Assembly: GCA_000996895.1 (NCBI GenBank)
Contig: LCBB01000002.1
Location: 27,596 to 91,595, forward strand
Source: a candidate division WWE3 bacterium GW2011_GWC2_41_23
GTDB lineage: Bacteria; Patescibacteriota; WWE3; UBA101185; UBA10185
Length of the DNA stretch: 64,000 nt
Direction of reading: 5' to 3'
The translations under genes and the position numbers were made by a program. Positions within the stretch are counted from its first letter, which is position 1, and each line of letters begins with the position of its first letter. Below, piece by piece: positions 39,224 through 64,000 of the stretch. The notes below the pieces were generated by a model, which saw nothing but the letters and a program-made list of their open reading frames with translations, searched no databases and was not told where the DNA came from.

Positions 39224-39652
39224 TTACTTTAACTCGATTGTAATTTTAGAATTTCTCGCTCCCGGCACGGGACCTGAAACCATAAGCTGTTTCTGATCGG
39301 GCATTACTCTTACAATTTTTAAACCTTTTATCGTCACTCTGTCTCCGCCCAACCTTCCTGCCATTTTTTTACCTTTTCTTACTCTTCCCGGTGTCTGACT
39401 GCCGATCGAACCCGGTGCTCTGGGTTTTGTGCTTTGTCCTCCGGTAGCAGGACCTCCGGAAAAATGCCATCTCTTCATTCCGCCTGCAAAACCTTTTCCT
39501 TTTGAAATGCCGACAATATATACGGGCTTGTTTTCCATATCGGCAGTAAGATCTTCACTTATTTTGCCGATTACCGTTACAGGAATTACCTTTCCCGTGT
39601 CGAGAAATATTTGGCTCATGTTAAGTTTTATTCCTTTTATCTTTTCTGTCAT
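39224..39652 (-). CDS. rplC: 50S ribosomal protein L3, unusually short (142 aa)
   Basis: N-terminus (IKGIKLNMSQIF...VIPVTVI) and C-terminus (SKGKGFAGGMKRW...GSIGSQTPGRV...KGKKMAG) match L3. About 55-65 central residues present in E. coli L3 are missing. Confidence 0.85.
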   Translation of the reverse strand: MTEKIKGIKLNMSQIFLDTGKVIPVTVIGKISEDLTADMENKPVYIVGISKGKGFAGGMKRWHFSGGPATGGQSTKPRAPGSIGSQTPGRVRKGKKMAGRLGGDRVTIKGLKIVRVMPDQKQLMVSGPVPGARNSKITIELK

Positions 39653-54829: not shown

Positions 54830-57388
54830 CTAACGCAAGTTTTGCCCATGACAAAACTTATACTTCTTCCCGCTCCCGCATGGGCACGGATCATTTCTTC
54901 CGACTTTAACTTTACCTGACAATACCTGCTCTACTTTCAGAGTCCTCCCCATCTGATCTACCACCCTCGGACTGGAATTTCCCGATGCTTCTTCAGCCAC
55001 ACCGGTTTCCAGCTCGCCGTGCTGATAGCTTAATCCGGACAAAAGATTATTTTCCGCCGAAGACGCCCTTACTACGGTGCCTTTACTTGCCTTACTCAAC
55101 CTCTCCCCCACAAAAGCGTAAATACGCCCCAGTAAAATCTCAAACCTTTCGTGTCCCTCTTTTTTATATTCCACCATCGGATCTCTTTGGGCGTAGCCTC
55201 TTAATCCTATGCCGTCACGCACCTGATCCATATCAACAAGGTGATCCATCCAAAAATTGTCTATAACCGGCAAACTCCAGTCGGATAAAATATCGAGCCA
55301 GGTATCTTCTCCAAATTCTTTTTCTTTTTCGGTCCAAAGTTCTTCTGTCAGAACGGACGAGGATGCAAGTTTCTGCATTAACCAATCTTTATGTTCGGTA
55401 GTACCTGATTCAAGTTCTAATATTCTTCTTCTCAAAGAATAAATAACTTCACGGTGTACATTTATAACGTCGTCCATTTCAACAACTTGTTTTCTGCGGT
55501 CGAAGTTAAATCCCTCTACTCTTTTTTGAGCATTCTCTATAGACCTGGTGACCAGTCCTGCTTCCAATGGAACTGTTTCGTCGATACCAAACCTGTCCAT
55601 CATTCTGCTGACCTGCTCGCCGCCGAAAATTCTCATGAGGTCATCCTGAAGTGACACAAAGAATCTGGTTTCTCCCGGATCTCCCTGCCTACCCGAACGT
55701 CCTCTTAACTGATTATCGATTCTTCTCGAGTCGTGTCTTTCAGTTCCTATAACATACAAACCGCCTGCTTCTACAACTTCCCTTTGTTCATCCCCGACTG
55801 CAGGATCTCCTCCCAAAATAATATCGACTCCTCTTCCCGCCATGTTAGTTGAAATAGTCACCCCGCCTCTTCTTCCTGCCTGGGCAATTATCAATGCCTC
55901 CCGTTCGTGGTTCTTAGCATTTAATATTTCGTGCGGAACTTTTCGTCTCGACAAAAGTTCGTGAAGTTGTTCGCTTTTTTCAACAGAAGTTGTTCCCACC
56001 AAAACCGGCTGTCCTTTAGCATGTCTTTCTACTATATCATCAGCTACGGCTTTGAATTTTGCGCTCTCCGTTTTATAAACAACATCGTTCTGATCTTTTC
56101 TTGTATTTGGTTTGTTGGTAGGAATTACTACAACATCGAGTTTGTAAATTTTGTAAAATTCTTCGGCCTCGGTAGCAGCGGTACCTGTCATACCGGCGAG
56201 TTTCTTATACATTCTAAAATAGTTTTGATAAGAAATTTCCGCTAAGGTTTTTGATTCCTGCTGTATTTCCACTCCTTCTTTTGCTTCAATGGCCTGGTGA
56301 AGCCCGTGAGAAAACCTGTTGCTGGGTAATAATCTTCCGGTGAATTGATCGACAATAACAACCTTCCCGTCCTTAACAACATAATCCCGGTCTTTTTCAT
56401 AAAGAGCGTGAGCGGTCAGAGCTTCCTCCATTAAATGGACCATTTCGAAATCCTGCTCATACAAATTGTTTACTCCCAGCAATCTTTCAACACGTCTAAT
56501 ACCGAGATCGGTTAATGTTACGTTTTTATATTTTTCTTCAACTTCGTAATCAGAATTTTTCGCCAAAGTTTTAACAATACGGTCGGCGTCGAAATATCTT
56601 GAAGATGGTTTGGCATCAGCCGCTGAAATTATTAAAGGCGTCCTTGCTACGTCTATTAATATGGAGTCGACCTCGTCAACAATGGCAAAGTTGTGAACAC
56701 CGAACTCTCCGTTAGGATTTGTCTGCACCATGGAACCCAGCGAACGAACCATGTTGTCCCTAAGGTAATCGAAGCCGAACTCGTGATTTGTTCCGTAAAC
56801 AATTCCGCATTTGTAAGCGTCCTGTCTGGAAACTTCCCGTAAATGCACTGCATAGATGTCGTCGAATTCAGTTCCTTCAAAACTTTTGTCGTAAACAAAA
56901 GCCCTCTCCTGCATGATTACCCCGACACCAATTCCGAGATAGTCATAAATGTCGCCCATCCAACCTGCGCCGTGCCTGGAGAGATAATCGTTGGGGGTAA
57001 CCAAATGAGCTCCCCGCCCCGTCAAAGAATTTAAAAACAATGGTAAGGTCGCCGTAAGAGTTTTTCCTTCTCCTGTCTTTTGTTCGGAAATCTTGCCTTC
57101 GTGTAAAACCACACCCGCCATCAACTGAACGTCGAAATGGCGTTTTTCCAAAGTCCTGACCGATGCCTCGCGTACAAATGCAAAAGCTTCGGGAAGGATT
57201 TTTTCCATAACTTTTTTCTGAGCCTCGGCGTCTAAACCCGACAACTCTTTCTTCCATTCCTCTATTTTCAAAAGCATTTCTTCCCGGCTCATGTTTTTAA
57301 CAGATGGTTCGAAGGAGTTTATTGCAGCTACAAAGGGTTCTATCTTTTTCAGCTGTTTTTCGTTTGAATCAACAAATAACTTAAACAT
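54830..57388 (-). CDS. secA: preprotein translocase ATPase SecA
   Basis: 852 aa. DEAD-like motor, [10 protein letters not shown], and the C-terminal zinc finger [14 protein letters not shown]. Confidence 0.97.
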
Positions 57389-57426
57389 ATCGAAAATGAT
57401 TATATCACCGCTAGGTTAAGCAGGTA

Positions 57427-58251
57427 CTAATAGAGATATAAAAATATAAGTAATAACGAGAGCGCCAAACGGTAAACTACGAAAACTTTGAGCCCGTGGG
57501 AGTTCAAATATTTCATAAGACCTGAAACTGCAAGATACCCGGAAACAGCGCTTGAAAGAAATCCGGATATTAAAATTCCCATACCTGCGCCTGAGTAATC
57601 TCCTAAAGCATCGGGGAGTTGAAAGATACCCGCGGCGGCAATTATCGGTATAGACAGTAGAAATGAAACCTTTGCTGCCTGTAATCTGTTCAACCCCGAC
57701 AAGAGACCTCCCGATATAGTTGCCCCCGATCTTGAAAATCCGGGAAATAAGGCGAGACATTGAAATAAACCTGAAGTTAAGATTTTCTTAAAACTCAGCG
57801 CAGGTGCGGGTAATGCTTTATCTACAAGCTTCGTTTTTTTCTCGGCTACGAGCATAAGAATTGAACCCAGTATTAAAAAAATGGCCACGCTTAACATACT
57901 TCTAAAAGTCGCTTCGAGAAAGTCACCGAGGAAATATCCTCCTAACCCTGCGGGTATGGTCGCGATAAGTAGCCACATGACCAACTTACTTTCAGGAGAA
58001 AATTGTGAAAAAAATCGGCCGTATTTCTTAAAATCCAAGAGCAGCGAGTTAAACATCCCACGGAGGTCTTTGTAAAAATAAACAAGAAGAGCTGTTAACG
58101 TACCTAAATGGAGCGTGGTATCAAAAGCCAAACCACCTTGTTCCCACCCCAGTAACTCGGGAAATATAATAAGATGCCCGGAAGATGACACGGGAATAAA
58201 CTCGGTTAAACCCTGAACTATACCCAAAACAACTGATTGAAAAAAAGTCAT
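57427..58251 (-). CDS. uppP: undecaprenyl-diphosphate phosphatase
   Basis: GIVQGLTEFIPVSSSGHL N-terminal motif. 8 TM helices. Confidence 0.9.
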   Translation of the reverse strand: MTFFQSVVLGIVQGLTEFIPVSSSGHLIIFPELLGWEQGGLAFDTTLHLGTLTALLVYFYKDLRGMFNSLLLDFKKYGRFFSQFSPESKLVMWLLIATIPAGLGGYFLGDFLEATFRSMLSVAIFLILGSILMLVAEKKTKLVDKALPAPALSFKKILTSGLFQCLALFPGFSRSGATISGGLLSGLNRLQAAKVSFLLSIPIIAAAGIFQLPDALGDYSGAGMGILISGFLSSAVSGYLAVSGLMKYLNSHGLKVFVVYRLALSLLLIFLYLY

Positions 58252-58260
58252 TTATAAAGG

Positions 58261-58968
58261 TCAGACTTTTCCGTAGATTAATACGTTGTCTGAATTTGTG
58301 TAACCTGCAACTACTAAACAAGTAACGTTTTGCAAAAAATCACCAAGATATTCGATGAAGATATTTACATCGTCCTGATGGTGGTCAAGGTATATCCTGT
58401 TAAAAATTAAAAGACCGCCGGGTCTGACCATTTTCTTTACCGAAGTAATAAAATTCCCGGATTTTCCAAGATCCGGATACTTCTCGCCCTGAAAGATGTC
58501 GACAATACACACATTAAAAAACTCCGGCTTAAGGTCAAATTCCTCCGGTTCAATAACAACCCTCAGTGCGTCATCTATTATTACTCTATGGTTCGGGATT
58601 GAATCCAGATCGAAATAGTTTTTCGCGATATCCACCATAACAGGATCGATTTCGACGCTAACCATATTAGGAGCGTTGAATTTTTCGGAAATTAAGTGGG
58701 CCATTGTACCGCCGCCCAAGCCCAAAAGGAGTATATTTTTAAAATCCGGGGCGTTTTCTTCAAGGACTTCAATGACCTTTCCCCAAACAAGACGGTTAGC
58801 TGAGGGAGATGTATGTGATATCGATTGATCTATCTTGTCGACTTTGATTTTACGGGTCTTACCGACTTCCCAAACCTGCACCTTCCCGTTAAATTTCGAC
58901 TCTGTTTCGTATATGATCTTCGGCAACTGAATCCCGTCAAAAATGTTCATATTGACCCATACTATCAA
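58261..58968 (-). CDS. spermidine synthase-like (PABS fold) protein
   Basis: ILLLGLGGGT, VSVEIDPVMVDIAK and a D..Y..D-type region. Confidence 0.6.
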   Translation of the reverse strand: MIVWVNMNIFDGIQLPKIIYETESKFNGKVQVWEVGKTRKIKVDKIDQSISHTSPSANRLVWGKVIEVLEENAPDFKNILLLGLGGGTMAHLISEKFNAPNMVSVEIDPVMVDIAKNYFDLDSIPNHRVIIDDALRVVIEPEEFDLKPEFFNVCIVDIFQGEKYPDLGKSGNFITSVKKMVRPGGLLIFNRIYLDHHQDDVNIFIEYLGDFLQNVTCLVVAGYTNSDNVLIYGKV

Positions 58969-60248
58969 ATAATTTTCTGTTTGGGCAGAATTTTGTCGAA
59001 ATTTACATATTTTCTTAGAACTTCGGGAACAGTTATGCTGCCGTCCACGTTCTGGTAGTTTTCGATAACGGCAGCTAAAAGCCTTGGTGTGGCTGCAACG
59101 GTGTTGTTTAGGGTGTATACGTATTTCAGTTCGCCTGCTGAATCTCTATACTTTATGTTTAATCTCCTGGACTGGAAATCTCTAAAATAAGAGTCTGAGT
59201 GAGTCTCCCGGTAATTACTCTGGGATGGAAACCAAGTCTCCAAATCGTACTTTTTCACCTGCCCGGCACCCATGTCTCCGGTGCACATTAAAAGTACCCT
59301 ATAGGGAAGGTTTAGTCCTTTTAGGACATTTTCGGCGTGATTTAACATTTTGTCATGCCATTCTCTGGTTAACTCTTCGTTAGCAGTTGTCAACACTACC
59401 TGCTCAACTTTGTTAAATTGGTGAAGTCTGAAAATTCCTTTCGTGTCTTTGCCATAAGCACCGACTTCTTTTCTAAAGCACGGACTCAACCCAAACAGCT
59501 TCACGGGAAGATCGGATTCGTTCAGGACTTCGCCGGCATAGTAAGAGGTGAGAGATACTTCAGCTGTTCCGATTAAAGCTTTGTCATCTTCCAACCTGTA
59601 GTGGTCATCTTCTCCCCACGGGAAATAGCCTGTTCCGGTGAAAAATTCCGGTTTTACTATCCACGGAACACTGAGCATTGTGTAACCCTCTCCGAGCATG
59701 AGGTCACATGCGTATCTCAGGATGGCCTGCTCAAGCTGGGCGCCCTCATTTTTTAGAAAGTATCCTCTGAATCCGCCGATTTTTGTTCCTCTCTCAAGAT
59801 CCATAATGTCCAGGGACAGCCCAAGGTCTACGTGATCCTTAGGTTTAAACGAAGGCTCTTTAATACTTCCTTCTTCCCTAACGACCTTGTTTCCGCTCTC
59901 GTCCTGCCCCACGGGTACGTCATCGGCAGGAACGCTGGGTACCCAAAGCATCATTTGATCAAAAATCGACTTAATTTCGGTTAAGTCCTTTTCGAATTTA
60001 ATAAGCTCCTCCTTAACCGCCGTAGCCTCTGTAATAAGCTTGGGCCTGTCTTCAGCAGCAACTTTTGAAATACCCTCGGAAAGCTTGTTTCTAAGGGCTC
60101 TGTGCAATTCCACCTTCTTCAGAAGGCTCAAATACAGGTCGTGGGTTTCTATTAACTTGTCTATAGAGATGGTTTTACTGAGCTGCTTGTCCTCAACGGC
60201 CTTTTTGACTAAATCTTTGTTGTTTTTAATAAAATTTATGTCCAGCAT
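58965..60248 (-). CDS. serS: seryl-tRNA synthetase
   Basis: N-terminal coiled-coil arm and class II aaRS motifs (FRGYF...; GSALAV-type region). 427 aa. Confidence 0.95.
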   Translation of the reverse strand: MLDINFIKNNKDLVKKAVEDKQLSKTISIDKLIETHDLYLSLLKKVELHRALRNKLSEGISKVAAEDRPKLITEATAVKEELIKFEKDLTEIKSIFDQMMLWVPSVPADDVPVGQDESGNKVVREEGSIKEPSFKPKDHVDLGLSLDIMDLERGTKIGGFRGYFLKNEGAQLEQAILRYACDLMLGEGYTMLSVPWIVKPEFFTGTGYFPWGEDDHYRLEDDKALIGTAEVSLTSYYAGEVLNESDLPVKLFGLSPCFRKEVGAYGKDTKGIFRLHQFNKVEQVVLTTANEELTREWHDKMLNHAENVLKGLNLPYRVLLMCTGDMGAGQVKKYDLETWFPSQSNYRETHSDSYFRDFQSRRLNIKYRDSAGELKYVYTLNNTVAATPRLLAAVIENYQNVDGSITVPEVLRKYVNFDKILPKQKII

Positions 60249-60382
60249 AGGAAATCCCTTTTTGATTGATTTTTACATATACAATGGTAATATAGATTTC
60301 GTCGCTGGAAAAGTCAATGAAACCTCAATATCTCAATATTGGGACCGACAAAAACACCCCGGGAAATCCCGGAGAGAGTTTG

Positions 60383-60411
60383 TTGACCTATGGTAACGCT
60401 TCTGTTACAAT
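60383..60411 (+). promoter_or_regulatory. sigma70 promoter (TTGACC-N17-TACAAT) upstream of infA
   Basis: -35 at 60383-60388 and -10 at 60406-60411. Confidence 0.55.
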
Positions 60412-60440
60412 CAAGCGCGTTCGTTGAGTCAGAAAGCTAA

Positions 60441-60659
60441 ATGAGCACAAAAGAAGTAATAACAAAAGATGGAAAAATAACAGAAACCCACATGGGAGGG
60501 ATGTTTAAGATAGAACTTGAAGATGAAACCAAGGCTTTGGCTGTCGTTTCGGGTAAAATGAGGAAGGCCCACATTAGGGTTTTACCGGGAGATAAAGTTA
60601 GAATCGAGTTCTCCCCACACGATCTGACAAGAGGCAGAATCATTTATAGGCTGAAATAA
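60441..60659 (+). CDS. infA: translation initiation factor IF-1
   Basis: 72 aa S1-like fold: KDGKITE...MFKIELEDE...GKMRKAHIRVLPGDKV. Confidence 0.95.
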   Translation: MSTKEVITKDGKITETHMGGMFKIELEDETKALAVVSGKMRKAHIRVLPGDKVRIEFSPHDLTRGRIIYRLK

Positions 60660-60685
60660 CTCAATAAAGAAAGAATTTTTGAAAC

Positions 60686-60802
60686 ATGAAAGTAAGATCA
60701 TCTGTAAAGCCAATCTGTAAAGATTGCAAAATTATTATAAGAAGCGGGGTAGTTAGGGTTATTTGTAAAAGAAACCCTAAACATAAGCAGAGACAAGGTT
60801 AA
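60686..60802 (+). CDS. rpmJ: 50S ribosomal protein L36 (38 aa)
   Basis: [38 protein letters not shown]. Too short for the ORF track, found by hand. Confidence 0.9.
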
Positions 60803-60804
60803 TT

Positions 60805-61191
60805 ATGCCAAGAATTAAAGGTGTAGACATACCGGGAGAAAAAAGAATAGAAGCATCCTTGAGATATATCTACGGTATCGGACCGACAATATCTAAGAAA
60901 GTACTCGAAAAATCAGGCATTAACCCCGACACCAGAGCCAAAAACCTTACCGACGAAGACGTAGCAAAGATAAACGCAGCTATAGCCGCCATGGAACTTC
61001 ATGTCGAGGGAGAACTAAAAAGGCTGGTTAATCAAAACATCAGACGTCTGCAGGAAGTAAAATCCTACAGGGGACTTAGACATCTGGCAGGACTTCCCGT
61101 AAGGGGACAACGCACAAGAACTAATTCCCGAACGAGAAAAGGTAAGAGAAAGACCGTAGGCGGACAGAAAAAGAAATTAGCGAAGAAATAG
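60805..61191 (+). CDS. rpsM: 30S ribosomal protein S13
   Basis: Sequence and operon position. Confidence 0.95.
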
Positions 61192-61251
61192 GATGCATTT
61201 CGGGGATTACCCCAAAAAGTAGGATGCATTTCGGGGATTACCCCAAAAAGT
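61190..61251 (+). repeat. perfect 31-bp tandem duplication (2 copies) in the rpsM-rpsK spacer
   Basis: AGGATGCATTTCGGGGATTACCCCAAAAAGT at 61190-61220 is repeated exactly at 61221-61251. Each copy carries a GGGG-ATTA-CCCC mini-hairpin. Confidence 0.9.
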
Positions 61252-61254
61252 AAT

Positions 61255-61644
61255 ATGGCTCAAACAACAAAGAAAACAAAAAAGAAAGAAAAAATAATAA
61301 CTCCGAGCGGGAGAGTCTATATCACCGCGGGTATGAATAACACCATTATTACGGTAACCGATTCTGAAGGTAACACACTATTTACAGCCAGCTCAGGAAG
61401 CGCGGGGTTTAAAGGATCAAGAAAATCAACTCCTTACGCTTCAACAAAAGCAGCTGAAATTGCAGGTTCCGCAGCTTCAAAAGCAGGCGTCAGAGACGTC
61501 TCAGTCTATTTAAAAGGAGCAGGACTGGGCAGAATTTCTTCCATCAAGGCTCTGAAAACAGCAGGTCTTAATGTCGTGTCAATTTCCGATCTTACCCCCA
61601 TCCCTCATAACGGATGCAGACCGGAGAAAAAGAGAAGGGTCTAA
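61255..61644 (+). CDS. rpsK: 30S ribosomal protein S11
   Basis: Sequence and operon position. Confidence 0.95.
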   Translation: MAQTTKKTKKKEKIITPSGRVYITAGMNNTIITVTDSEGNTLFTASSGSAGFKGSRKSTPYASTKAAEIAGSAASKAGVRDVSVYLKGAGLGRISSIKALKTAGLNVVSISDLTPIPHNGCRPEKKRRV

Positions 61645-61648
61645 TAAT

Positions 61649-63160
61649 ATGGCAAGGTATACCGAAGCAAAATGCAGATTATGCAGAAGAGAAGGCGTAA
61701 AACTGTACTTAAAAGGTTCAAGGTGCGAATCAGATAAGTGTGCTATATCAAAAAAAGCGCAAGCTCCCGGACAACACGGAACAAGAAGAAAGTCAGTTTC
61801 AGAATACGGAAAACAGTTAAGAGAAAAACAAAAAGCAAAAAGAATCTACGGAATTTTAGAAAAACAATTCAAGAACTACGTTAACAAAGCCTTGAACTCA
61901 AAAGGTGTCTCAGGTGATATCTTAATGCAGCTGTTGGAATCAAGACTGGATAATATGGTCTACAGAAGCGGCTTTGCAGCTTCCAGAGCACAGGCCAGAC
62001 AATTTATAAGAAGAGGTTTATTTAACGTCAACGGTAAGGAAGTAAACATTCCTTCAATGGCACTTAAAATCGATGACGTGGTAAAACCGGTAAGCTTTGA
62101 AAAAATACAATTAAGAGAGGGCATTGTACTTCCTGAATGGCTTGAGGCGAATATTAAAGAAAGGTATGTAAAATATTCGAGACTTCCTATGCCGGAAGAC
62201 ACTCAGGAAAAAGTAGATGTGCAGGCAATTATAGAATTGATGATAGTCACTAAAGAAAATTTAAAAATAAATCCGATAAAGGAAAGCAACGAGATAAGCA
62301 CTTATTCCGTTGAACCTCTCCCTACAGGGTTCGGACACACGCTCGGGAATGCCTTAAGACGCGTGCTGTTAACAGAAATTGAAGGCGCCGCAGTAACACA
62401 AGTAAAGATTTCGGGTGCTTCGCACCAATTTACTACCATCCCCGGTGTAAAAGAGGACGTAGTTCAGCTTACTTTGAACATAAAAAAGCTGAGATTCAAG
62501 ATACACACGGACAATCCTGTTGTAGCTACTATCAGAAAAAAGGGTGCAGGAGTAATAACAGCTAAGGATTTAGAGTTACCCTCAGATCTGGAAGTAATGA
62601 ATAAAGACCTTCACATCGCTACTCTCGCCGATTCAAAAAGCGAGCTTAATGTCGAACTTATTGTTGAACCGGGCGTCGGATACTCACCCATGGAGGAAAG
62701 ACAGACCTCAAAGGTCGGAGTAATTGTGCTGGATGCACTTTTCTCTCCCGTATTAAACGTAACTTACGAAGTTGAACCTACCAGGTTCGGCGACAAAACA
62801 GATTTGGATAAACTTCTGATAACTGTTGAAACAGACGGAAGCGTACTTCCAAAACAAGCACTTGTTAAAGCTTCCGCTATTCTTAAAGGCTACTATGAAT
62901 CCTTTGAGAAGTGGGAACTTGAAACAGATAAGAGTGTTGAACCCGAGGAAGAAGATGCAGCAGTAGTCGATATAGAAGATGTTGCCGTAGACGAACTTCC
63001 TCTTCAGACAAGAACTATCAATGCCCTTAAGAAACACGGCATCGATACTCTTAAACAACTCGCAAAGAAATCAGATGACGAAATCGCCGACATTAAAAAT
63101 CTCGGAGAAAAGTCACTTGAAGAAATAAAAAAACTTCTAAAGAAGGAAGGTCTTAGATAA
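61649..63160 (+). CDS. rpsD-rpoA: ribosomal protein S4 and RNA polymerase alpha subunit in one continuous reading frame (apparent S4-RpoA fusion; S4 about 61649-62239, RpoA from the ATG at 62240)
   Basis: S4 N-terminal zinc ribbon MARYTEAKCRLCRREG and C-terminal ...VQAIIEL run straight into RpoA (MIVTKEN...GFGHTLGNALRRVLL...) with no stop codon. Three stops (TGATGATAG) lie in the adjacent frame at the junction. Confidence 0.8.
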   Translation: MARYTEAKCRLCRREGVKLYLKGSRCESDKCAISKKAQAPGQHGTRRKSVSEYGKQLREKQKAKRIYGILEKQFKNYVNKALNSKGVSGDILMQLLESRLDNMVYRSGFAASRAQARQFIRRGLFNVNGKEVNIPSMALKIDDVVKPVSFEKIQLREGIVLPEWLEANIKERYVKYSRLPMPEDTQEKVDVQAIIELMIVTKENLKINPIKESNEISTYSVEPLPTGFGHTLGNALRRVLLTEIEGAAVTQVKISGASHQFTTIPGVKEDVVQLTLNIKKLRFKIHTDNPVVATIRKKGAGVITAKDLELPSDLEVMNKDLHIATLADSKSELNVELIVEPGVGYSPMEERQTSKVGVIVLDALFSPVLNVTYEVEPTRFGDKTDLDKLLITVETDGSVLPKQALVKASAILKGYYESFEKWELETDKSVEPEEEDAAVVDIEDVAVDELPLQTRTINALKKHGIDTLKQLAKKSDDEIADIKNLGEKSLEEIKKLLKKEGLR

Positions 63161-63177
63161 TCAGGAGATTATAAGAT

Positions 63178-63651
63178 ATGAGACACAGAGTAGAAAAGAA
63201 AAAAATGGGAAGACCCGAAGGACACAGAGGATCACTCGAGAAGAATCTTGCTGTCAGTCTCATAATGCACGAGAAGATTGAAACAACCTTGGAAAAAGCC
63301 AAGTTCGTGAAGCCTTTCGTAGAAAGACTTATTACGAAGGCAAAAAAAGGCTTTGCTTCGTCCGACAAAATAGTGGTATTCAACACTGTAAAAGACCTGA
63401 GAAAGAATCTTACAAACGAAGAAGCAATCAAAAAACTGATGGATAACATCGCAGGACGCTTTGAGAATAGACCCGGCGGTTACACAAGGATAATAAAGAC
63501 AGGAAACAGAGACGGAGACAACGCTAATACTGCCAGGATTGAACTATTACCTGCGGAAAGAAAAGAAGAAGCTCCTAAAGAATCAAAGAAAGCCGAAAAG
63601 AAGGTTGAAGCAAAAAAGACAGAAAAGAAGGTAAAGAAAAATGATAAATAA
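63178..63651 (+). CDS. rplQ: 50S ribosomal protein L17 with a Lys/Glu-rich C-terminal tail
   Basis: L17 core, then ERKEEAPKESKKAEKKVEAKKTEKKVKK. Confidence 0.9.
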   Translation: MRHRVEKKKMGRPEGHRGSLEKNLAVSLIMHEKIETTLEKAKFVKPFVERLITKAKKGFASSDKIVVFNTVKDLRKNLTNEEAIKKLMDNIAGRFENRPGGYTRIIKTGNRDGDNANTARIELLPAERKEEAPKESKKAEKKVEAKKTEKKVKKNDK

Positions 63652-64000
63652 AACAACAGCAGCTAAAAAAGAACAGAACAGAAAGTGGTATTTTTACGAT
63701 GCCTCAAATAAGGTATTGGGAATGCTTGCTGCAGATATTGCGAAAATTCTTATCGGTAAAAATAATCCTGAATACTCCCCTAATCAGAATACAGGCGGAG
63801 TGGTTGTAGTTACCAATGCAGAAAAGATTGCACTAACAGGTAACAAGATGAAAAAGAAAGTCTACATTCACCACACCGGTTTCCCAAAAGGACTCAGGGA
63901 AGTGAAGATTGAAAAGATACTGGAAAACGATCCGGCACAAATATTAGTCCGAGCCGTAACAGGAATGCTTCCTAAAAATAAACTACGAAGTGAAAGATTA
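63641..64000 (+). CDS. rplM: 50S ribosomal protein L13 (3' end beyond the window)
   Basis: WYFYDASNKVLGMLAADIAKILIGKNNPEYSP...GGVVVVTNAEKI. Start overlaps the rplQ stop. Confidence 0.85.
   Translation, partial: MINKTTAAKKEQNRKWYFYDASNKVLGMLAADIAKILIGKNNPEYSPNQNTGGVVVVTNAEKIALTGNKMKKKVYIHHTGFPKGLREVKIEKILENDPAQILVRAVTGMLPKNKLRSERL

Follow-up and report, generated by a model that had tools for sequence, protein, structure and literature searches.

An apparent fusion of rpsD and rpoA in a groundwater WWE3 genome record is very probably an artefact of assembly

Does a bacterium of candidate division WWE3 make ribosomal protein S4 and the alpha subunit of RNA polymerase as one polypeptide? The question is raised by a stretch of 64,000 nt, which is called the window below and in which rpsD and rpoA follow each other without a stop codon. 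An earlier note on this DNA had offered two readings of the arrangement: either the two proteins are truly translated as one, or the assembly is wrong by a single base within the final codons of rpsD. To answer the question, we consider the fused frame as it stands in the record, the same locus in independently assembled siblings and related lineages, and the breaks and joins that other records carry at the same place.

The fused frame in the record

That rpsD and rpoA lie in one unbroken frame, as the earlier note had stated, was confirmed. The ORF at 61571..63160 on the forward strand has zero internal stops, and from ATG 61649 it encodes an S4-RpoA product of 503 aa that closes at TAA 63158-63160. 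The distance from the S4 ATG at 61649 to the RpoA ATG at 62240 is 591 nt, or 197 codons, with no stop between. In the window the junction reads ...GCA ATT ATA GAA TTG ATG ATA GTC..., within the stretch ...CAATTATAGAATTGATGATAGTCAC... (also written ...ATTATAGAATTGATGATAGTC...), and the peptide across the fused junction is ...VDVQAIIELMIVTK.... The usual spacer between the two genes is missing, again as had been noticed: we checked the bases directly 5' of rpoA and found no Shine-Dalgarno (SD) sequence in the record, and stop and spacer are likewise absent. No second copy of rpsD or rpoA was seen within the window.

Profile searches with Pfam and NCBIfam models placed uS4 on residues 1-197 of the fused product. 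Both uS4 domains were present (PF00163 at residues 3-97, E=1.9e-31; PF01479 at residues 99-145, E=5.2e-14), and the match covered positions 1-199 of 202 in NF003717 and positions 1-197 of 200 in TIGR01017; the TIGR01017 score of 173.2 bits lies below the cut-off of 177.2 bits for a full-length uS4 equivalog. Codons 1-196 of rpsD (61649..62236, +) are the same as in the intact 200-aa S4 of sibling assemblies, with residues 1-196 identical to those of the intact protein (P0276) and 100% nucleotide identity to two sibling contigs (L009 and L012). Relative to P0276 and these contigs, the S4 of the window is without the residues FYSR and the TAA stop. A complete RpoA was recognised from residue ~198 onwards: TIGR02027 gave 306.4 bits against an equivalog cut-off of 227.8, NF003519 also matched, and the dimerisation, insert and C-terminal domains (PF01193, PF01000 and PF03118) were all found. 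The placement of the RpoA N-terminus at the junction and of a normal C-terminal end at 63160 stands. The rpoA gene itself (62240..63160, +; stop TAA) encodes 306 aa identical to a stand-alone RpoA (P0275), and its own SD is missing in the record. Gene calls on identical loci place rpsM (60805-61191, +) and rpsK (61255-61644, +) upstream in the alpha operon, and rplQ, encoding L17 (63178..63651, +), lies downstream.

A separate observation concerns the spacer between rpsM and rpsK, which is occupied by a perfect 2 x 31-nt tandem repeat (AGGATGCATTTCGGGGATTACCCCAAAAAGT) at 61190-61251. Each unit can form a GGGG-ATTA-CCCC hairpin, with a fold z-score of only -1.2. The repeat is present at 100% identity in the independent assemblies L009 and L012 and absent from the sister lineages L001, L008 and L011, in which the spacer measures 3-16 nt; no further copy was found in the window.

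Intact siblings and a 31-nt difference

Sibling contigs were found by exact-protein look-ups with L17, S11, RpoA, RpoB, SecY and one glycosyltransferase of the window, and the independent assemblies retrieved were JGI 3300025010, the MEGAHIT re-assemblies ERZ909595 and ERZ27254805 and the SPAdes assembly ERZ4902915; several GenBank MAGs were retrieved too. The nearest proteins were RpoA of groundwater candidate division WWE3 (Katanobacteria, Patescibacteria/CPR) MAGs. Siblings agreed with the window at 100% and without indels over 500-22092 (L017) and 20397-41653 (L019), at 99.996% with one mismatch over 38179-61481 (L023), and at 100% over 57255-62238 and 62234-64000 (L009 and L012). The contigs compared belong to SPAdes, JGI and MEGAHIT assemblies. 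The sole indel against siblings in ~63.5 kb is one of 31 nt at the rpsD/rpoA boundary, and L009 minus these 31 nt is exactly the window.

Ribosomal protein L3 is called in the window at only 131-142 aa (~39224-39652, -), and ~160-195 nt are left unassigned between rpsJ and rplC. The L3 of E. coli has ~209 aa. Because the independent assembly L019 has the same sequence (100% to the window), the short L3 is probably a trait of the lineage and not an error.

Across the rpsD/rpoA boundary the sequence of the siblings is ...ATT ATA GAA TTT TAT TCC AGG TAA ATTTTTAAAGGAGGAATTG ATG ATA GTC...; S4 ends there with ...IIEFYSR*, and a 19-nt spacer with the rpoA SD AAAGGAGG stands before rpoA. The 31 nt lost in the window are TTTTATTCCAGGTAAATTTTTAAAGGAGGAA, or an equivalent segment after a shift within GAATT, and with them went S4 codons 197-200, the TAA stop and the entire spacer including the SD. 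The GAATT at 62234..62238 (+), where the BLAST segments overlap, is the one copy left of a direct repeat of 5 nt on either side of the missing segment; computation of this microhomology allows the deletion join to be placed anywhere from 62233/62234 to 62238/62239, with 62236/62237 included. Alignment to the siblings further resolves TTG (Leu) at 62237..62239 (+) as a hybrid codon, its TT coming from S4 Phe197 (TTT) and its G being the last base before the rpoA ATG. The earlier note had taken ...VDVQAIIEL as the normal C-terminus of S4, which was wrong: the intact sibling S4 ends ...VDVQAIIEFYSR*, and the last L belongs to the hybrid junction codon. In the siblings 622 nt separate the start codons, which are in different frames, versus 591 nt in the window; since 622 nt minus 31 nt gives 591 nt, a multiple of 3, rpsD and rpoA come to be read as one frame.

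In more distant WWE3 lineages (81-88% identical in DNA) the two genes are likewise separate, with a spacer of 18 nt between them, and the order of 200-aa S4, stop, 18-19-nt spacer and 306-aa RpoA was found in the same-population assemblies as well as in the related lineages examined. Separate genes stand at all of L001-L013, L015 and L016, where a natural fusion should have recurred and did not. The difference is private to one record, as is typical of an assembly error in a MAG, and the independent assemblies agree with each other. The junction variants had also brought up the possibility that the window is a chimera of L001-like and L008-like strains; this candidate was rejected, as those loci are 81-88% identical overall and siblings at 100% exist.

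These alignments bear directly on the second reading of the earlier note, which was right in kind, an assembly error, but not in extent, the lesion being a deletion of 31 nt and not of a single base. According to that reading, a stop at TGATGATAG is masked by an indel of one base or by a homopolymer error close to the rpsD end, as the three out-of-frame stops at 62238-62246 seemed to suggest. The triplets TGA TGA TAG are indeed present (62238..62246, +) but incidental, the same bases being found in intact relatives. When six intact assemblies were aligned, a clean 31-nt gap and no 1-nt difference appeared, and TGATGATAG is in the intact genomes too; in all intact relatives it consists of the spacer end and rpoA codons 1-2 and has no tie to the S4 stop, which in the orthologs compared is the TAA within the missing segment. 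We consequently leave a single-base error virtually no chance. The probability of recoding is likewise negligible. Recoding would give a separate S4 from the fused frame if the genetic code were unusual or if a +1 frameshift were programmed after TTG (62237-62239), where the shifted ribosome would meet TGA at once; against this, the stops of neighbouring genes are ordinary ones, TAA and TAG, in relatives S4 ends at a plain TAA in frame with nothing conserved for recoding, the site offers no known frameshift-stimulating context, and the arrangement is private to one record. On the sequence comparison with siblings and other WWE3 lineages, a single-base error is refuted and the fusion is not conserved.

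Record counts, breaks and collapsed gaps

In public data the fused product is KKS03482.1, from a GW2011 Rifle-groundwater WWE3 MAG, and it lies on one NCBI contig of 132,590 nt; UniRef100_A0A0G0VUX4 carries it under the name "Multifunctional fusion protein". Counted by contigs, the fused product occurs on 1, the identical stand-alone RpoA (P0275) on 44, and the intact 200-aa S4 (P0276), which is identical to the S4 of the window after the 31 nt are restored, on 32. The RpoA gene call appears in 78 index blocks.

Searches for further fusions covered both nucleotide and protein collections. The exact fused junction was not found in the genome and metagenome contig collections, in which the intact 57-mer gave only 1 and 2 matches, all of the 88%-identity lineage; because these collections miss most intact siblings, the negative junction scan carries little weight. 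A HMMER search with the fused query returned no full-length S4-RpoA among the best 150 of 1.84 billion cluster representatives, a ranking that hides non-representative members and near the top of which a true full-length S4-RpoA would be expected, at >300 bits. Several proteins were considered as precedents for a fusion and rejected: P0123, P0127 and P0153 are RpoA-RpoA duplications, and the hybrids P0124, P0136 and P0231 are singletons in which domains are truncated or the linker is out of frame. The clustering has a peculiarity of its own, in that through KKS03482.1 the S4 proteins and the RpoA proteins come together in one cluster at 90% identity, and P0272 (216 aa), which represents this cluster, is likewise the product of a mis-join. 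As a non-representative member of this mixed cluster, KKS03482.1 is hidden from representative-based searches; since searches of representatives only can hide fused members in this way, they are weaker evidence for the absence of a fusion anywhere. In the literature, rpsD-rpoA is listed under the 'gene fusion' links of STRING, with no actual fusion protein described (PMC9514032).

A genuine functional fusion would tether RNA polymerase to the 30S subunit and couple transcription to translation in a hard-wired way. Such a protein would be in keeping with an open frame, with two parts that are almost complete, with a loss of 31 nt that brings rpoA into frame, and with S4 itself, which reportedly binds RNA polymerase and has NusA-like antitermination activity. 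The description of rpsD in PMC9514032 goes only so far as a gene encoding a protein that links transcription and translation. The conserved translational fusion envisaged in the earlier note finds no support in the comparison: separate genes were found in every independent same-population assembly and every related lineage examined, and an S4-alpha fusion in none of them. The best 150 representatives hold no full-length S4-RpoA, and the hybrids P0124, P0136 and P0231 are the singletons described above. Ribosomes far outnumber RNA polymerase, and with no free S4 an obligatory fusion is therefore implausible by stoichiometry. All evidence for an artefact counts against a functional fusion too, and we regard it as very improbable. 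The more specific version, in which a real deletion has become fixed in the subpopulation sampled, the S4-alpha fusion is the only source of S4, and alpha is tethered to the 30S near the mRNA entry side, deserves similarly scant belief. If true, it would be a striking case of hard-wired transcription-translation coupling and a natural experiment in a CPR bacterium; the evidence is strongly against it.

Other records break at the very same place. Eight GW2011 GenBank contigs stop at exactly window base 62236 (...ATTATAGAA), and each of them encodes a 196-aa "S4, partial" (P0280); L014 is one such end. Base 62236 falls inside the 5-nt GAATT ambiguity of the window deletion, and the window can therefore be written as the left contig ending at 62236 followed directly by TTGATGATAG.... 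In LCER01000025.1 (L030; GW2011_GWA2_42_9, GCA_000994825.1), 62236 is joined to a position that in the intact sequence lies 114 nt further downstream; the join reads ...ATAGAA followed at once by CCCTACAGGG, without Ns, and yields an S4 of 216 aa whose tail is out of frame and an RpoA cut short to 265 aa. The same contig has a second deletion, of 118 nt, in rplM. The L014 contig end, the presence of P0280 on 8 contigs and the L030 join together mark 62236..62237 (+) as a recurrent assembly breakpoint, and one left edge with different right edges across assemblies indicates dropped gaps and not biology.

Related disturbances surround this point. In the two MEVX01 scaffolds of RIFOXYB1_FULL_43_24, the end of one and the start of the other share a 79-nt overlap that spans the junction, and in RIFOXY MAGs S4 is cut to fragments of 185 and 193 aa at the ends of contigs. 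The rpsD/rpoA boundary itself falls within a block of 113 nt over which co-occurring WWE3 lineages do not differ, the kind of non-unique stretch where assemblers stop. A MEGAHIT contig over window 59163-64000 (L011; ERZ27254805 k141_218790) matches the window at 88% to the left of 62189 and at 100% over the 1767 nt on the other side; it comes either from a chimeric assembly of strains or from a real recombinant, and the point of the switch falls within the 113-nt shared block.

Lesions of the same type were found elsewhere in the project's records, in addition to the site being shared with contig ends and mis-joins, and both observations are of the sort that identifies an assembly error. Sister records have private deletions of 64 nt in rpsD (L010), 32 nt in tuf (L020) and 70 nt (L014). 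In L024, 76 nt of rpoC are deleted and replaced by 'NN', which is an under-sized scaffold gap, and the Logan contig L018 has private deletions of 86 and 120 nt. Private deletions of 32-120 nt in GenBank and Logan records of this population thus hit the essential genes rpsD, rpoA, rplM, tuf and rpoC; such deletions are systematic collapsed gaps and are relevant to users of these MAGs. IDBA_UD was the assembler behind the GW2011 scaffolds (PMC4742961), and local assembly errors were described as especially prominent in IDBA-UD, together with non-unique scaffold ends (Chen et al., 2020; PMC7111523).

One finding speaks against an artefact, namely the GAATT repeat at the edges of the missing segment, since a repeat of at least 5 nt would flank a 31-nt deletion by chance in only ~0.0015-0.0075 of cases; the microhomology at the other deletions in sister records is 0-2 nt. 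A direct repeat of 5 nt, rare by chance, is the signature of a slipped-strand deletion, and it raises the possibility of a real 31-bp deletion allele that arose by replication slippage between the GAATT repeats and was present in part of the population or, transiently, as a mutant in a single sample, probably deleterious and without evolved function. A minor allele of this kind would also make a bubble in the assembly graph and could contribute to the recurrent breaks, including the left contig end at 62236. We nevertheless consider such an allele unlikely. It would be represented by 1 contig versus 32-44 intact contigs of identical sequence, MEGAHIT re-assemblies of the PRJNA268031 groundwater runs among them; its left edge is the same to the base as 8 contig ends and as the different, 114-nt collapse in L030, which points to software rather than biology; and it would abolish free S4 and remove the SD of rpoA.

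The data establish a private deletion, a shared breakpoint and intact siblings. We conclude that the fused ORF is very probably an assembly artefact, in which 31 nt were lost where two assembled pieces were joined, as a collapsed scaffold gap, and that in the organism rpsD and rpoA are almost certainly two ordinary genes, separate from each other. The fusion was rated an artefact also because, from the only copies of rpsD and rpoA seen in the window, no free S4 could be made and the SD of rpoA is gone. The true locus would be the alpha operon rpsM-rpsK-rpsD-rpoA-rplQ, with an S4 of 200 aa, a TAA stop, a 19-nt spacer with the SD AAAGGAGG and an RpoA of 306 aa. Assemblers may halt or switch strain in the 113-nt block that is common to co-occurring WWE3 lineages, and the left piece of the project's IDBA-UD scaffolds would terminate at 62236. 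The next piece, beginning 3 nt before the rpoA ATG, would then have been abutted or merged without intervening bases or Ns, and some step of software or curation would have dropped the 31 nt. An overlap-based merge of contig ends could leave the same GAATT footprint as slippage.

Relation to known systems

The S4-RpoA fusion is almost certainly not a real feature; the locus is a standard alpha operon, and the class of lesion has already been well described. Its biological significance is little, and the practical worth of the case is in database hygiene, KKS03482.1 being in GenBank. Inferences of the Rosetta-stone kind, such as the STRING links between rpsD and rpoA in PMC9514032, can pick up artefacts like this one.

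The bacterial alpha operon has the order rpsM-rpsK-rpsD-rpoA-rplQ (Thomas, Bedwell and Nomura, 1987, as cited in PMC9514032). Compared with that of E. coli and B. subtilis, gene order and orientation are alike, and the intact siblings keep rpsD and rpoA as separate cistrons with a short spacer and an SD for rpoA. Unlike these, the cluster of the window's lineage runs on into rplM-rpsI and is detached from the spc/secY/adk cluster, which is on the other strand. Across ~29500-64000 of the window, the alpha cluster infA-rpmJ-rpsM-rpsK-rpsD-rpoA-rplQ-rplM-rpsI on the forward strand diverges from, and is separated from, the cluster rpoB-rpoC-rpsL-rpsG-fusA-tuf-S10-spc-secY-adk on the reverse strand; secA, serS, bacA and genes for an RsmB-like methyltransferase and a TPR protein are among those between the two.

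The rpoB-rpoC fusion of Helicobacter and Wolbachia is natural and conserved throughout its clades, and protein data stand behind such fusions. It resembles the S4-RpoA frame in joining neighbouring operon genes into one polypeptide; in contrast, S4-RpoA is private to one MAG record and contradicted by siblings of identical sequence. The closest likeness in kind is to the local assembly errors of MAGs (Chen et al., 2020; PMC7111523), with which it shares the loss of tens of nt in one record at a point that is not unique between strains, sibling contigs ending at the same base, and a wrong protein spread into public databases. It differs from them in that the loss in the window is in frame and flanked by a 5-nt repeat, and in this way mimics a clean Rosetta-stone fusion.
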